DNA of 64,000 bases from Nitrospirota bacterium (GTDB lineage: Bacteria > Nitrospirota > Thermodesulfovibrionia > Thermodesulfovibrionales > Dissulfurispiraceae), in the NCBI GenBank assembly GCA_963790025.1, contig CAWBMP010000004.1, forward strand, positions 1,440,001 through 1,504,000. The letters are read 5' to 3'. The notes beneath the pieces were generated by a model. It did not search any database, was not told the DNA's origin, and saw only the letters and a program-made list of their open reading frames with translations. This document shows positions 45,938-51,907 of the stretch, one piece after another (the first letter of the stretch is position 1; each line of letters opens with the position of its first letter). The position numbers and the translations under genes were made by a program.

Positions 45938-46019
45938 GCCGAAGTGGTGGAACTGGTAGACACGCACGTTTGAGGGGCGTGTGGGGCAACCTATGCGGGT
46001 TCGAGTCCCGCCTTCGGCA
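45938..46019 (+). tRNA. tRNA-Leu(GAG)
   Basis: GCCGAAG/CTTCGGC acceptor stem, anticodon loop TT-GAG-GG, long variable arm, GGTTCGAGTCC T arm; CCA not encoded. Confidence 0.97.
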
Positions 46020-46232
46020 TTTTTCTTTTCTTGCATATTCATATGCGTACACAATTAAGTTCTTACTTAAACAATAAAGTCTTTACTTAACCAATTAAGT
46101 TCTTACATTTCGCATCGTAAATTTCACCTCGGATTGTTTGCAAGTTCCGGAGCAAACCTGCTACTCGGTGATGTATTAACCTGAAACCGAGAGGAGAGCC
46201 CTTTCTGGTAAGGATGCGTCCACCCTGCTATA

Positions 46233-46349
46233 CGCGCGGCTGACATCCTGTCAAAGACGTTGAATGCCGATCGTAACATCTATTTGTGGCGATTTTGGGG
46301 TGAAGGGAAATGTAAACAATATAGACCTGACCCTCAGTTCTCTCTCACG
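46233..46349 (+). repeat. 117-bp inverted repeat, left copy
   Basis: Reverse complement of 51116-51232 with one mismatch. Confidence 0.95.
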
Positions 46350-46362
46350 CAGGAGCAACAGC

Positions 46363-47085
46363 CTATGGTTTCGGAGTAAAAGAGTATAGCGTATATGCAC
46401 ACGGTATCACGCCAGTATCCAGTCGAAGATCAATTTCCGGCAGTTTGTCAATATCAGAAAGTTGGCCGTTTGGTTCTGCATAGATCTCCGAAGCAAAAAC
46501 ATCCTGCCTCCGGAATGCCGAAAATCGCAGGTAAAGGAGATTCTCCAACTCATTATTTCTCGTATCAAATACCCTTAACCCTTTGGCTTTAACATGTTCA
46601 TTCGTTGCAAAGACTGTCTCAAAATGTTTGTTAATATCCAAAACAAACAAGGCGCCATTAAATTTTATAACTCTCCATAGCTCATCGGAAATCTTTAGCA
46701 GGTCAGCATCGCTGGAAAAGCAGTCAAAAACATTGGAACAAAGAACAATATCAAACATACTATTTTCAAAAGGTATTTCCAGAATTGATGCTACTTGAAA
46801 GTTCATGCTTTGGGGAGACATTCTTTTGCAGATGTCAATTGCTTTCTCGCTTATATCAAAACCATAACAATTCTCGGGCCTTGTGCGGAGTTCGGAAAAA
46901 AATCTCAGCTTTTCACCACCGGCGCACCCGGCTTCGAGTATTTTATATGTTGAAAGCTCGGTTTTACCCAGCATTATCATCATTCCTATCATGTATTTCC
47001 ATACCCGGTAGTTATTAAAAAGTCTGTAGAGATCCGCTAATCCCACCGGTAGTGAGCCATCCTGCCCGTATTCGAAAGTCGCCAT
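46363..47085 (-). CDS. Class I SAM-dependent methyltransferase (cargo)
   Basis: ILEAGCAGG, GFDIS, IPFENSMFDIV. Confidence 0.85.
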   Translation of the reverse strand: MATFEYGQDGSLPVGLADLYRLFNNYRVWKYMIGMMIMLGKTELSTYKILEAGCAGGEKLRFFSELRTRPENCYGFDISEKAIDICKRMSPQSMNFQVASILEIPFENSMFDIVLCSNVFDCFSSDADLLKISDELWRVIKFNGALFVLDINKHFETVFATNEHVKAKGLRVFDTRNNELENLLYLRFSAFRRQDVFASEIYAEPNGQLSDIDKLPEIDLRLDTGVIPCAYTLYSFTPKP

Positions 47086-47283
47086 TTTAAAATACCTCTC
47101 TTGTAGATTTTAGATTGACCATGCAGTCCTTTTTTTATCTTTCCTGCTACTTAAAATAAGTTACTTTCAACAAAGCTGTATGCTTATGGTTACAGCATGT
47201 ATTATACCAGACAATTTGTGGCAGCTTTCAGAAGGGAGGGCAGTGGGCTACTTTGAATTAAGAAGCTATGATATACTGTGGGT

Positions 47284-48252
47284 ATGACAACATTGGCAGC
47301 CTTATTAACAAAGGATGCGCTGATAATGGGCTGTGATAGCTTAGGGTCTGTAACTAGGCCATTCGTTGATCCTCTTGACTTGATGGATTACTTTGAAAGA
47401 ACCGCCCATGGCTTTGAGCAGAAAGTAGATAGCAATAATAAACCTATAATGAGTATTGACGATATCTTTAACAAAACTCGCGATATCCCTTATAATCATA
47501 TGACTTATGTCGATAAGCTGTTTTCGTTAGAGCCTTTACCTATGGGTATTATGATTACTGGTATCGCATCTATTGGAGACTATACAATTAAAAATTTGAT
47601 AAATCAGTTTATGGGTAAGGAGCCCATCTTTAAAAATAAAGGCAAATCAAAGAATTATACAGTTAGTTCGATAGCGAATAAGATATTGAAATTTATGAAA
47701 ACACATTACGATGCTGAGTACGGAAGTGGCCAAACCAAACAATCACTGGAAATGATGATAGGTGGTTATGATCTACAAAAACATATTCCAACTGTACTTA
47801 GAATACATGTGCATGAAAATAAAGTAGAAAAAACCTTAAAAGATTTTGGTATAGTATTTGGCGGACAAATGACTGAGATTCAGAGAATCGTGTTTGGCAC
47901 AGATGATTTCAACAGATTGAAGCTAATGGTAAGAAGTGATAAAATTTTGAACACATATTATGATGAAGTTACAACTTTTTTGAGGAACAACAACATTAGC
48001 ATTGATATTCCAAAACCGGACACAAAAAACAAACATAATTTTTTCCAAGGATGGGATATCAATGGATTTGACGCTTTTTGGGGTGATTTTTCAGAAAAAA
48101 ATGCCATTGAATGCGTTAAATTCTTTATAGATGTCATGGTTAAGACACAATTATTTAGTGATACAATGCCTACAGTCGGTGGGGATATTCATTTGGCAAA
48201 AATTACTAAAGCTGAAGGATTCAAGTTTTGTTATCAAGAAAAGGAGGGATAG
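47284..48252 (+). CDS. Proteasome beta-subunit-like Ntn hydrolase (putative)
   Basis: N-terminal MTT, LIMGCDS, DKLFSL, MIGGYD, C-terminal TVGGDIHLAKIT. Confidence 0.65.
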   Translation: MTTLAALLTKDALIMGCDSLGSVTRPFVDPLDLMDYFERTAHGFEQKVDSNNKPIMSIDDIFNKTRDIPYNHMTYVDKLFSLEPLPMGIMITGIASIGDYTIKNLINQFMGKEPIFKNKGKSKNYTVSSIANKILKFMKTHYDAEYGSGQTKQSLEMMIGGYDLQKHIPTVLRIHVHENKVEKTLKDFGIVFGGQMTEIQRIVFGTDDFNRLKLMVRSDKILNTYYDEVTTFLRNNNISIDIPKPDTKNKHNFFQGWDINGFDAFWGDFSEKNAIECVKFFIDVMVKTQLFSDTMPTVGGDIHLAKITKAEGFKFCYQEKEG

Positions 48253-48254
48253 AC

Positions 48255-48434
48255 ATGCAAAAAAGCTTGAAATACATAACTGCCGAAGAAATGAATATGT
48301 ACATTAAATATGCAGAGTATTTTAATGTTAAGGGTTTTTGTGCATCGACTTTAAATCGGTCAAATATACAGATTGATAAATTATTACAGCCGATGAATAA
48401 AGCTATTAGTAAGAAAAAAGTTACAAAGAAATAA
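48255..48434 (+). CDS. Small basic hypothetical protein
   Basis: AAGGAGG RBS; starts 2 nt after the upstream stop. Confidence 0.5.
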   Translation: MQKSLKYITAEEMNMYIKYAEYFNVKGFCASTLNRSNIQIDKLLQPMNKAISKKKVTKK

Positions 48435-48448
48435 GAGTCAATAAAGGA

Positions 48449-49273
48449 TTATAGTAAATTTATAATTTCTTCAATCTCCCAAACATGATCTGATATTCCT
48501 GCCTCCATGGCTGGGGTAACTCTCAATGTTTGGTGAATCCGGCAAAAGTTGTAATGCATGAAATGCAGAGCCACAGCACATTCAAGGTTCTCGACCTTCT
48601 TTGAAAAAGCGTTTGTCAATCTGGTAAACCTTCTCATGCTCATGCGCATTGTGAGGTTCTGCCGTTCCACATAGCTTGTAGAAATGTGTTTCTTATCGGG
48701 ATTGCCTTTTATATTTGCTGTTCGTGTTCCAGTGCAAATGGCGGGGCTGTACTTCTTTTGATTGTCAGGACTGTCATTGCCATATAGTTTAACGAGCATG
48801 GCATAATCAATATCACTGCCGAATGCATTTTCAACGGCATCGACATATACCCTGTAACCATCTGTAGTTAATTGGACACGGTGTTTTAATCTGCTTGCAA
48901 GGTCATTTATAAATGCCTTTGCCGCCTGTACGCTACGATCTCCGACATACCAGTTAGCTATAAGCGTTGAATCAGCGCATAAGGCTGTCCACGTCCACAC
49001 GTCACCGTAACCAAACTGCCCTTCAAATTCGGGTGGCACATTCTTATCCTTTGCATAACAGAAAGACCATATTTCGTCACACTGGATACGCTTGCAGGTA
49101 ATTTGACGGACGAACCTATTGTGATACTCCTTACAGACTTTGCCGAGATCAACAAGAAGCTTCAATACCGTCTTCTTTGCAGCGCCAGTCATTCTACAAG
49201 TGGCACGGATAGAATTGCCTTCAACTAAGCAGCTTACTAGTTGCGCTCTTTTCCTTGTATCTAACTGGCTCAT
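48449..49273 (-). CDS. IS1-family DDE transposase (single ORF)
   Basis: HTH (EGNSIRATCR), IQCDEIWSF, LTTDG, TSYVERQNLTMR...FSKK. Confidence 0.9.
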   Translation of the reverse strand: MSQLDTRKRAQLVSCLVEGNSIRATCRMTGAAKKTVLKLLVDLGKVCKEYHNRFVRQITCKRIQCDEIWSFCYAKDKNVPPEFEGQFGYGDVWTWTALCADSTLIANWYVGDRSVQAAKAFINDLASRLKHRVQLTTDGYRVYVDAVENAFGSDIDYAMLVKLYGNDSPDNQKKYSPAICTGTRTANIKGNPDKKHISTSYVERQNLTMRMSMRRFTRLTNAFSKKVENLECAVALHFMHYNFCRIHQTLRVTPAMEAGISDHVWEIEEIINLL

Positions 49274-49279
49274 GATTTT

Positions 49280-49308
49280 ATTATACTTGACCGCTCAAGC
49301 ATTGTCAA
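49280..49308 (-). promoter_or_regulatory. Consensus sigma70 promoter of the transposase, with palindromic operator; leaderless
   Basis: TTGACA-17 nt-TATAAT-6 nt-ATG; the spacer contains CTTGA-GCGG-TCAAG. Confidence 0.8.
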
Positions 49309-49422
49309 GTAAAAAATGTCGACATGAGACACCTTCGTAAGCATTACTTGACAAACTGCATGGTCAACTTGATAAGATAGCTAGTAAACTTGACGATATA
49401 ATGTCGTTATGGAGGCCATCGT

Positions 49423-50655
49423 ATGACAGATCAAGATTGGGATCAATTAGCTATTGATGCCGGGAAAGTTTTTACCCCTGCGGCACCTATAGATGAAGAG
49501 CGTTTATTCGCAGGTCGACTTGAACAACTACGACAGGTTATTGATGCAATAAATCAGAAAGGACAACATGCAATTGTTTTCGGGGAAAGAGGCGTTGGAA
49601 AAACTTCTCTAGCGAATATTATCGCTACAAAAATAAGTGGTGCCTTAATCATAGCTCCTCGTATTAATTGCGACAGCACTGATACTTATTCAAGTCTTTG
49701 GAAAAAGATATTTGACCGTATTAATTTGACAAAGGAAGTTCACAAAATCGGGTTTACTAATGGTAGCAACATTGAACCCATAAATATTTGTGAACAATTT
49801 GCTGAGAGTGATATTTCTACTGATAACGTTCGTTCATTACTTACTTATCTATCTGAACATTTTTTGATTATCCTTATCATTGATGAATTTGATCGTATTG
49901 CTAAGCCCGAAGTAAGAGCAGCAGTTGCTGATACTATCAAAACATTATCAGATCATTCCATTGCGGCTACGATTGTCCTTGTTGGTGTCGCTGACAGCGT
50001 GAACGATCTAGTAAGTGAACATCAATCAATTGAACGAGCTTTAGTTCAGATTAGAATGCCCCGCATGTCCAATGATGAGCTTTATAAAATAGTAGACAAT
50101 GGATTGAACATATTAAAAATGTCAATTGATGATGACGCAAAAAGAGAAATAGTTTTATTGTCCAGAGGATTGCCACATTATACTCACCTTCTATCTTTAT
50201 ATTCAGCAAGAGAGGCTCTTGATGGAAGGTCATTGAATATCAATATTGGACATGTGGAATCTGCTATTTCCGAAGCACTGCAAAAAGCCCAACAAACGAC
50301 TCAGACTGCATATCATAAGGCAACAATGAGTGCAAGAAGAGACAATTTATTTTCCCAGGTTTTGCTTGCATGTGGCCTTGCAAAGACTGATGATTTAGGT
50401 TATTTCTCTGCTGGCGATATTAGAATCCCTTTATGTGAAATCATGGGAAAGTCATATGATATTGCTAGTTATTCTAGACATTTATATGAATTTTGTGAAC
50501 CAGCGCGCGGTCCAATATTACAAAGAACTGGAGTCAAACATCGATACAAATTCCGTTTTATTAATCCTTTGATGCAACCGTTTATTATTATGCAAGGTCG
50601 GGTAACAAATCTTATTGATAGACAGAAGTTAGAATCTATAAAAAATAAGTACTAA
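49423..50655 (+). CDS. AAA+ ATPase (Orc1/Cdc6- or STAND-like) with probable C-terminal winged helix
   Basis: FAGRLEQL, Walker A GERGVGKT, Walker B IIIDEFD, GLPHY; GGAGG RBS. Confidence 0.85.
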   Translation: MTDQDWDQLAIDAGKVFTPAAPIDEERLFAGRLEQLRQVIDAINQKGQHAIVFGERGVGKTSLANIIATKISGALIIAPRINCDSTDTYSSLWKKIFDRINLTKEVHKIGFTNGSNIEPINICEQFAESDISTDNVRSLLTYLSEHFLIILIIDEFDRIAKPEVRAAVADTIKTLSDHSIAATIVLVGVADSVNDLVSEHQSIERALVQIRMPRMSNDELYKIVDNGLNILKMSIDDDAKREIVLLSRGLPHYTHLLSLYSAREALDGRSLNINIGHVESAISEALQKAQQTTQTAYHKATMSARRDNLFSQVLLACGLAKTDDLGYFSAGDIRIPLCEIMGKSYDIASYSRHLYEFCEPARGPILQRTGVKHRYKFRFINPLMQPFIIMQGRVTNLIDRQKLESIKNKY

Positions 50656-50900
50656 GATTTAGGGATTTTAGCCCATCTTGTATGAGCAGCTTTAATAGCA
50701 ATATGCTTTCTCGATTCCGCAGATAGCTTCTCAGCGCGCGCTTTGCCGCCTTTCAACCCTCCAAGTCTGCCAAGGGCAACTGCGGCAGGATTCTTTTCTT
50801 TGGCAGGCTGTTCCGGTCGGGAACGGTCAGAAGTTACAGCTTCAACTATTGATGCGGCGATCTGGTTTACATCTTCGGTTTTCTTTCTCTTTCTTTCCAT
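50652..50900 (-). CDS. Small basic protein with KNPAAVALGRLGGLKGG motif
   Basis: KGG-type motif; preceded by a promoter related to the transposase promoter. Confidence 0.8.
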   Translation of the reverse strand: MERKRKKTEDVNQIAASIVEAVTSDRSRPEQPAKEKNPAAVALGRLGGLKGGKARAEKLSAESRKHIAIKAAHTRWAKIPKS

Positions 50901-50905
50901 GCTTT

Positions 50906-50934
50906 AGTGTAGCATGACCGTTCAAGCATATCAA
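50906..50934 (-). promoter_or_regulatory. Sigma70-like leaderless promoter with operator shared with the transposase promoter
   Basis: TTGATA-17 nt-TACACT-5 nt-ATG; shares ATGCTTGARCGGTCA. Confidence 0.7.
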
Positions 50935-51115
50935 GATACCGGAAATTCAAAGTAGCCAACTACCGAAGGGAGTTACATTACGGAAACACTTTTTAACAAA
51001 TTTCTGTGTAAATCATACTCATTTTCCTTTTTCAAGCCCTCTGGATTCGGAGATGCAACTAATAAACCACTTCCGAGGATTACGGGCTTTAGGAGGTGAT
51101 GTCTGTTTCAGCGAA

Positions 51116-51232
51116 CGTGAGAGAGAACTGAGGGTCAGGTCTATATTGTTTGCATTTCCCTTCACCCCAAAATCGCCACAAATAGATGTTACGATCGGCA
51201 TTCAACGTCTTTGACAGGATGTCAGCCGCGCG
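51116..51232 (-). repeat. 117-bp inverted repeat, right copy
   Basis: Reverse complement of 46233-46349. Confidence 0.95.
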
Positions 51233-51907
51233 GGTTATCAGGGTGTACTCGGGGGAAATTCGGCCCTAAAAAGTATGAACTTTATTGTTTGCTGTTTTAA
51301 GAGCTTTATTGTTTTCCTCTGAAAAAAAGTAAGAACTTTGATGTCTTGGGCTTTTTTGTCGTATTATATGAATCAACAGGTTAGGTTGTCATTTTGTAGA
51401 GACTTTATTGTCTACAGATAATTAAATAAGTTACATACCTGAAACTCTCATTATTACCGTGAACAAAATAATCCCTTCGCTATTAAGAAAAAGTTCTGAT
51501 TTGCGAGAGCAGAAAGCGACAGTTTTTATGATAAAAACGGTCGCTGTCCCTATTTGTTCTTTTACCGGCATGACAGCGTAACACCCGCCGCGACTCCAGG
51601 GAATAGGCCTGATGCGTTTTTTATTTTGTTTTTTATTGACATAATATTTTTATGGGTTTAACATAGATCAGTAGTTCATAACTTTTTTGAGCTAAAAGGA
51701 GGTGAAGTCAATGGATGATGGCCCTGGAAACAGTAGTAACATAACATCGGCCGTGCGGATGTCTGCGCGAAGGGGGACCTTCTGTTCATTGCTCGCCTCT
51801 ATGTCAACTCTTCTCTAATCCCGTCCGCTTTCTTCTTCACAAGACTTCGCCGGCCAAAACACGTAGCGGTTTTCGCTGTTGCTATTGAATAATGGAGGTG
51901 AAGTGTC

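Follow-up and report, generated by a model that had tools for sequence, protein, structure and literature searches.

The element described here is very probably a non-autonomous member of a subfamily within the prototypic Tn7 lineage, the lineage that has separate TnsA and TnsB together with TnsC and TnsD. It spans positions 46042-51420 (5.4 kb), directly downstream of a leucine tRNA gene, in a stretch of 64,000 nucleotides (hereafter the window) from a Nitrospirota bacterium of the family Dissulfurispiraceae, order Thermodesulfovibrionales (GCA_963790025.1, contig CAWBMP010000004.1, positions 1,440,001 to 1,504,000). Both termini read TAT...ATA, and the TGT...ACA typical of the Tn7 family is absent from both ends. 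The features that delimit the element are the following, in window coordinates:

45938..46019, + strand: tRNA-Leu(GAG), the presumed attachment-site determinant (ARAGORN; Rfam tRNA 51.3 bits)
46037..46041: left copy of the presumed 5-bp target duplication, ATTCA, 4/5 identical to ATTAA
46042..46106, + strand: right-type (attachment-site-proximal) end, terminus TATGCGTAC followed by three 16-bp TnsB-type sites
51273..51420, - strand: left-type (distal) end, terminus TATCTGTAG read inward, followed by four spaced sites
51371..51383, + strand: motif AATCAACAGGTTA, resembling the consensus of integration host factor (IHF), between left-end sites 1 and 2
51421..51425: right copy of the presumed target duplication, ATTAA

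At the right end, three direct sites start at 46051, 46071 and 46091 with an exact 20-bp period, and at the left end four inverted sites start at 51273, 51297, 51329 and 51396, with start-to-start spacings of 67, 32 and 24 nt from the terminus inward. The termini, TATGCGTAC at 46042-46050 and, on the other strand, TATCTGTAG at 51412-51420, each stand 9 nt ahead of an ACAAT; the outermost left-end site at 51396 is followed by CTACAGATA, the inward reading of which is TATCTGTAG. The gap between the end of the tRNA gene (46019) and the start of the element is 22 nt. Such asymmetric layout, contiguous at the right end and spaced at the left, fits a feature of the Tn7-like family. An initial annotation, made from the sequence of the window alone, had reported these coordinates and sequences, the three direct and four inverted sites, the 9-nt register, the flanks and the 22-nt gap, and all of them proved correct when the sequence was reread.

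By searching the window with the consensus ACAATAAAGTTCTTAC at up to three mismatches, seven matches were obtained, all within the two ends; shuffled sequences gave a mean of 0.60 matches, and 0 of 100 shuffles reached seven. The same consensus has 57 matches genome-wide (3.45 Mb), and clusters of three or more occur solely at the two element ends. The consensus was built from these very sites, which makes this enrichment test partly circular, so the independent test is the tandem-site pattern in other genomes of the order. With up to two mismatches allowed, 13 of 317 genomes from the order contained this pattern; its reversal, used as a control, occurred in none.

The likeness to Tn7 extends over several features: the TnsB-type site core ACAATAAAGTC, the distance of 9 nt from terminus to first site (the Tn7 right end reads TGTGGGCGG+ACAATAAAGTC), contiguous sites at the target-side end with spaced sites at the other, and a duplication of 5 bp, perfect in three complete relatives and 4/5 identical in the window. 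The description of the Tn7 right end on which the initial annotation had relied agrees with a plasmid record carrying Tn7-sized tnsA, tnsB and tnsC, which reads TGTGGGCGG ACAATAAAGTCTTAAAC. The differences lie in the termini, TAT...ATA (TAA at one end of one relative) instead of TGT...ACA, position 2 being A and not G; in the lack of tns genes; and in the target, a tRNA gene rather than glmS. Tn7 and most DDE transposases use a 3'-terminal CA.

The unusual triplet recurs in relatives. When right ends were collected with no terminus specified, 14 distinct ones were obtained: 10 with TAT, one each with TAG, GAT and TGT, and one with an unrecognisable terminus. Among seven left ends found in the same way, six read TAT and one TAA. 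As TAT stands at 10 of the 14 right ends and TGT at one, TAT is read as a family trait rather than as decay. The scans of species representatives and of metagenomes described below required TAT, and they are therefore unusable for counting it.

Exact boundaries come from relatives with intact duplications. The 4,966-bp element L083 has CTACT on both sides, and the element of about 50 kb covered by L215 and L131 has AAATT on both sides; since no boundary shift is compatible with the flanks of either, their ends are exactly TA(T/A)...ATA with a 5-bp duplication. In the 10,929-bp element L082 the flanks match at two of five positions in register, probably owing to a second, abutting element. The mini-element of L037 (genome G006), only 1,087 bp long, has TATCA at each side. 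At another place in this locus there is an empty junction, in which the tRNA spacer ...CTGTAATATCA is followed directly by ATAGG..., whereas the filled version has the mini-element between two TATCA copies; the comparison is made with a sister element at the same tRNA, and a boundary ambiguity of 1 nt exists there only. The corresponding search for an empty site of L083 gave no usable match in 54 genomes of its family. Duplications abutting TA(T)...ATA, together with the conservation of TAT in relatives, bear out the proposal that the TA ends are not random decay.

Relatives with the same ends that carry transposition genes were identified in two cases. The metagenome contig L209 has a TnsB fragment at the contig end, TnsC (AAA_22, TniB), two TnsD/TniQ proteins and a right-type end closing ...ATACCGATA. 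The second, L215 with L131 (gammaproteobacterial, about 50 kb), encodes TnsA, TnsB, TnsC and TnsD (Pfam) adjoining a left-type end, TAACGGGTA, on one contig; its right end in L131, TATCTGCGG, lies about 50 kb from the left end and 21 bp past the stop codon of glmS, right end proximal, with glmU beyond. This position is the classical attTn7 arrangement, and the right-end-proximal insertion past glmS and the four separate Tns proteins are shared with Tn7 itself. Enterobacterial plasmids carry a TnsABCDE element whose right end reads TGTGGGATG+CAAATAAAGG; with its TnsA, TnsB and TnsC the proteins of L209 and L215 share 35-42% identity, and the TnsC proteins of L209 and L215 are 49% identical to each other. 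Thus, the relationship to Tn7 proposed in the initial annotation is upheld; as to the autonomous element with TAT ends that it had foreseen, the TAT right end of L209 and the tnsABCD genes of L215/L131 agree with it, and the left end of one autonomous relative, which reads TAA, does not.

The two TnsD/TniQ paralogues of L209 (L209:2167-5560) are 39% identical over their N-terminal 320 residues, and the presence of two suggests two protein-guided attachment sites.

The ends recur at fixed distances from conserved genes. The same right end lies 22-23 nt after tRNA-Leu(GAG) in the window and in G001, G003 and G004, and a related right end lies about 20 nt after it in G020; the right-end termini of G001, G003, G004 and G020 are TATGAGAAA, TATGCGCAC, TATCCGCAC and TATCTACAC, respectively. 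In G155, G199 and G254, from two other families of the order, the right end is found 19-20 nt after tRNA-Ser(TGA). Several metagenome contigs likewise have tRNA-Ser(TGA) beside the right end, and others have tRNA-Asp or tRNA-Gly(CCC). A fixed short gap from the right end to a conserved gene fits Tn7-like attachment-site targeting (tRNA-Leu, tRNA-Ser, glmS), and the tRNA targeting that had been proposed for the element is in this sense supported by position.

A wider search showed how far such ends are spread. The scan of species representatives, with a pattern including TAT, returned 51 stretches, about 20 of which were judged real ends with site arrays, including records titled Rhodospirillaceae, Geobacter, Desulfuromonadaceae and a gammaproteobacterial metagenome-assembled genome (MAG); the remainder were chance matches or lay inside a conserved coding gene. 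The metagenome scan, for TAT and two contiguous sites, yielded 34 contigs with arrays in 34/34, the scan of viral contigs one stretch (L211), and a blastn comparison of the right end with plasmids chance-level matches only. Four complete helper-less elements (the window element, L083, L082 and L037) and many solitary ends were found within one order, and solitary decayed right ends are common at tRNA-Leu(GAG) in relatives.

This tRNA gene is also an island hot spot: in L037:2174-12420 (G006), two partial copies of the tRNA 3' end, two related islands, the 1,087-bp mini-element and a further solitary right end are nested successively.

Neither the element nor its genome yielded tns genes. By Pfam and by BLAST against Tns proteins, none of the five open reading frames (ORFs) of the element is a Tns protein, none resembles TnsA, TnsB or TnsD, and no remnant tns pseudogene was found inside the element. 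The genome, 98.8% complete, gave no TniQ, Mu-transposase-C or TnsA match in family searches; for Mu-transposase-C and TnsA the control genomes were also matchless, and the Mu-transposase-C search was later positive in 39 of 317 genomes. It also gave no tblastn match to 10 Tns proteins of same-genus relatives, and no match to 8 Tns proteins of the cognate family. As tns genes are lacking in element and genome but present in same-ended relatives, the element is read as a non-autonomous derivative, in line with the initial annotation.

Homologues of the cognate Tns proteins with at least 34% identity were found by tblastn, among the loci examined, only in L209, in the loci of the gammaproteobacterial genome, in the more distant L218 and in plasmid elements. 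Of 102 further genomes from the order to which the gammaproteobacterial MAG belongs, one has a TnsC homologue, at 36% identity. Two candidates closer to hand were rejected. The Tn7-like elements of the genus (G001, G002, G004) would be poor helpers, their TnsB being just 22-25% identical to the cognate one and no such sites lying nearby; and the ATPase encoded in the window element is not a decayed TnsC, its best E value against five TnsC proteins being 0.022 (BLAST).

From these observations a mechanism can be outlined. A TnsD-type protein supplied in trans would have bound the tRNA-Leu(GAG) gene and recruited TnsC, after which TnsA and TnsB would have cut the element from its donor and joined its 3'-TA ends, in staggered fashion, to target positions 17-22 nt past the tRNA. 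The end facing the tRNA would have been the right one, and a 5-bp duplication, now ATTCA/ATTAA, would have arisen. With no helper in the genome, the element would now be immobile unless a helper enters.

In such an insertion the left end would probably be bent between sites 1 and 2 by an IHF-type protein, at the putative binding site listed above. A motif fitting [AT]ATCA[AG]N4TT[AG], after the general IHF consensus, stands 38-50 nt from the terminus in seven of nine left ends (five of nine by the strict consensus) and in none of nine right ends, and the genome has 5 HU/IHF-family genes.

Several observations weigh against this account. The two tns-bearing relatives include one cut by a contig end, neither is complete and tRNA-targeting, and the TAA left end belongs to one autonomous relative. 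The single TGT right end, that of G195, stands at an attachment site shared with three TAT-ended elements, although not at the site of the window element, and the duplication in the window is imperfect. The TnsC of L209 has no match at E<=1e-10 across the 317 genomes of the order, and no helper was found in any of them. The window element is single-copy in its genome, and its mobilisation in trans is presumptive. Among 40 relatives no copy of it was found, unlike the several copies or independent insertions expected of a miniature inverted-repeat transposable element (MITE); what does occur are different helper-less elements with ends of this family. The empty tRNA-Leu allele that the initial annotation had proposed to look for was likewise not seen in these 40.

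Part of this evidence would suit a once autonomous element whose tns genes disappeared in place, when its interior was deleted or replaced, and which never moved as a mini-element; it would still be Tn7-like with TAT ends. Its single copy, the want of any helper in the order, the solitary decayed right ends common at this tRNA in relatives, and an interior bracketed by a 117-nt inverted repeat and containing an IS1-like gene, both signs of rearrangement, all speak for such a history. However, the mini-element of G006, with intact ends and a perfect duplication, sits between a tRNA-derived spacer and an integrated island, with the empty junction elsewhere in the locus. It bears the marks of an insertion and shows that helper-less members were inserted, and G006 has neither a Mu-transposase-C match nor a match to the TnsC of L209. 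The three other complete helper-less elements (window, L083, L082), moreover, carry unrelated cargo. Loss in place is accordingly considered unlikely, albeit far from negligible. The initial annotation had held that relatives with TGT termini would make TAT mere decay, and the idea of a TGT end decayed by mutation in a dead element can draw on the TGT relative at another attachment site and on the imperfect duplication in the window. It is nevertheless highly improbable, given TAT at both window ends, at 10/14 right ends and at 6/7 left ends, across attachment sites and phyla, in a set that includes elements with perfect duplications and one still carrying tnsABCD.

Two further explanations dispense with a Tn7 helper altogether. 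If the repeats were sites for the IS1-like DDE protein and AAA ATPase of the element itself, acting as a two-gene transposase of the IS21/Tn552 type, the element would be autonomous; the ATPase has Pfam matches to TniB (30 bits) and AAA_22 (42 bits), and the DDE gene adjoins it. Yet the two genes are divergent and 150 bp apart, neither occurs in the other complete same-ended elements (L083, L082, L037), the ATPase lacks significant similarity to TnsC, and those same-ended elements that do bear transposition genes carry TnsABCD, so that there is very little to be said for this proposal. A genomic island integrated at the tRNA by a tyrosine integrase, with the repeats incidental, would match the hot spot that tRNA-Leu(GAG) forms in the genus, where G006 has integrase-type islands with duplicated tRNA 3' ends. 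The element, in contrast, has no integrase gene and no tRNA 3'-end copy at its far boundary, and what bounds it are arrays of several sites in inverted orientation and a presumed 5-bp duplication, not direct att repeats; such an origin is scarcely credible.

Non-TGT ends and a tRNA-Leu-targeting TnsD have already been published for other Tn7-like clades. In the available portions of their paper, Hsieh and Peters describe TGT/ACA as not universal in Tn7-like elements: McCAST has TAC/GTA boundaries, some I-F3 elements have TGA/TCA, and TGT is missing from almost 20% of the cyanobacterial elements with a TnsAB fusion. In McCAST, insertion takes place 29 +/- 1 bp after tRNA-Leu under the direction of TnsD (PMC9881144). 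On this account of McCAST, with its 5'-TAC/GTA-3' boundaries, a 3'-terminal TA has already been shown to work. An excerpt of Faure et al. places tRNA-Leu homing 30-33 nt downstream (PMC10293859), and sections of a 2024 review call TGT typical, with the reason for its conservation not understood, and some type I-F3 elements IHF-dependent (PMC11406308).

The CRISPR-associated transposons (CASTs) that target tRNA genes (type I-B2 PmcCAST, and type I-D McCAST and CyCAST) resemble the present family in inserting at a fixed distance downstream of a tRNA gene, including tRNA-Leu, by means of a large TnsD-type TniQ. They differ in being cyanobacterial and in having fused TnsAB and CRISPR-Cas modules, whereas in the tns-bearing relatives described here TnsA and TnsB are separate (L215) and the stretches read contain no cas genes; the family of the window element also has a distance of 19-23 nt and the end triplet TAT, not TAC. 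Another parallel is offered by laboratory mini-Tn7 vectors, in which Tn7 ends surround cargo without transposition genes and movement needs TnsABCD in trans, and natural genomic islands lacking tns genes occur at attTn7. Compared with both, the helper-less state seen here is natural and recurrent, with four complete elements and no cognate helper found in the order.

In a literature search that did not cover supplements, no TAT/ATA subfamily within the prototypic Tn7 lineage was found, nor a spread as helper-less elements in Nitrospirota, nor a positioned IHF-like motif of a TAT subfamily. At the level of titles and abstracts, the literature on non-autonomous Tn7-like elements gave no natural helper-less families, and the available part of Benler et al. 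on Tn7-like cargo, again apart from supplements, had no relevant passage on end sequences.

The interior of the element contains five ORFs enclosed by an inner inverted repeat:

46218..46349, + strand: inner inverted repeat, arm 1 (117 nt at 99%, about 133 nt at 95%)
46363..47085, - strand: class I S-adenosylmethionine (SAM)-dependent methyltransferase, 240 aa, cargo (Pfam Methyltransf_11 E 3.8e-15; all NCBIfam matches under cut-offs)
47278..48252, + strand: 324-aa ORF, cargo (no Pfam, PADLOC or NCBIfam match)
48449..49273, - strand: IS1-family-like DDE transposase gene, 274 aa, cargo (NCBIfam transpos_IS1 56.8 bits, cut-off 100)
49423..50655, + strand: P-loop/AAA ATPase, 410 aa, cargo (the Pfam matches given above, AAA_22 at 42 bits and TniB at 30 bits; weak PADLOC mad8, IetA)
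50652..50900, - strand: 82-aa ORF, cargo (no known family in Pfam, PADLOC, NCBIfam)
51116..51248, - strand: inner inverted repeat, arm 2

This cargo, that is, the methyltransferase, the P-loop ATPase, the IS1-like gene and two ORFs of no known family, appears to be unrelated to transposition. The IS1-like gene reaches 21.3 bits with Pfam DDE_Tnp_IS1, under the cut-off, and has homologues in relatives at 66-76% DNA identity; around it no convincing terminal repeats were found, just a weak 12-nt inverted repeat. The 99%-complementary cores of the two arms, 46233-46349 and 51116-51232, enclose all of the cargo. The repeat unit of about 133 nt has three copies in the genome, the third at C4:1206380-1206490 (L019:1491-1611). 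As a structured RNA the repeat was rejected (no Rfam match, and no fold signal, with fold z-scores of 0.73 and 0.51), and as a Tn7 component as well, a diverged copy in G007 having no Tn7-type sites nearby. We read it as a small genus-specific repeat, apparently of the repetitive extragenic palindromic (REP) kind, which does not belong to the Tn7 machinery. Over its inner 26 nt it is similar to the inverted sequences on either side of the IS200-like Y1 transposase units of this genome, which are about 930 bp long. Three such units, at L021:596-1526 (G000:C5:305393-306323), G000:C4:751443-752373 and C4:1309115-1310058, each have a 288-aa IS200-like gene (Pfam Y1_Tnp) and are flanked by inverted GGGGTCAGGTCTATAATG..., an arrangement as expected for REP-associated transposases.

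To the right of the element, 208 nt (51421-51628) have no match in the 40 relatives, and synteny returns farther out. A 45-nt stretch in this flank (window 51471-51515) matches G000:C4:519187-519231 at 93%.

Related ends elsewhere are accompanied by cargo of various types. Near those of L131:133-9131, L137:3292-6770 and L153:1096-2757 there are a set of the cyclic-oligonucleotide-based antiphage signalling system (CBASS) type (SMODS nucleotidyltransferase, patatin), an E2/E1/JAB fusion, an SMC-like ATPase and a GmrSD-type nuclease; such cargo is defence-type, typical of Tn7-like elements. In L146:10001-12686, genes for Cas4 and Cas1 (Pfam) come immediately after a left-type TAT end; they may form a CRISPR adaptation module transported as cargo, or be neighbours by chance. 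In both L041:151-2668 and L167:7182-9763 an IS21-type pair (IstA-like DDE, IstB-like ATPase) lies directly inside the right end, with a small zinc-finger-like ORF ahead. In these two independent elements the pairs are probably insertions of insertion sequences, the repeated position being worthy of note.

The genome of the window holds traces of other elements too. Two three-site arrays with sites of about 21 bp, beginning TGTAGGATG+CAGTAAGG, are found at L019:1327-1396 (G000:C4:1206206-1206275) and G000:C4:1617982-1618045. Both look similar to the right end of the TnsABCDE element from enterobacteria; they have about 175 nt in common at 88%, and each lies just past a stop codon; one follows a PhoH-like gene, and the other a gene end that we take to be a GyrB-like C-terminus. 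The arrays are possibly what is left of the right ends of a second Tn7-like family, of the TGT type and likewise with no tns genes in this genome. In addition, two related 16-mers, CCAATAATGTTCTTCC and ACCATAAATTTCTTAT, occur 26 nt apart at G000:C4:853223, C4:993764, C4:1210176 and C5:326254, and probably mark the end of another repeated element.

Taken alone, the window would receive an ordinary annotation, as the immobile relic of a mobile element. When seen among its relatives, it may tentatively be placed, on comparative grounds, in a distinct subfamily of the prototypic Tn7 lineage that would combine a TnsB processing 3'-terminal TA ends, a positioned left-end site of the IHF type, and TnsD paralogues aiming at glmS and, to judge by position, at several tRNA genes, and that would survive in Thermodesulfovibrionales almost only as helper-less mini-elements and solitary ends. 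If this is true, it would amount to a MITE-like way of life for Tn7, with a helper that is rare or transient, for instance on a plasmid or a phage. The published exceptions to TGT belong to CRISPR-associated clades, while here a whole subfamily close to Tn7 itself would be concerned. Its ends keep the core and register of the TnsB sites with A in place of G at position 2, and thereby offer a natural comparison for cleavage by TnsA and TnsB and for strand transfer; the TGT- and TAT-ended relatives at one common attachment site form a natural pair for the role of the conserved terminal nucleotides. For the biology of the phylum, tRNA-linked islands in Nitrospirota can be Tn7-type insertions and not integrase islands, and helper-less Tn7 derivatives, in relatives with defence-type cargo such as CBASS, GmrSD and Cas1/Cas4, can far outnumber their helpers.

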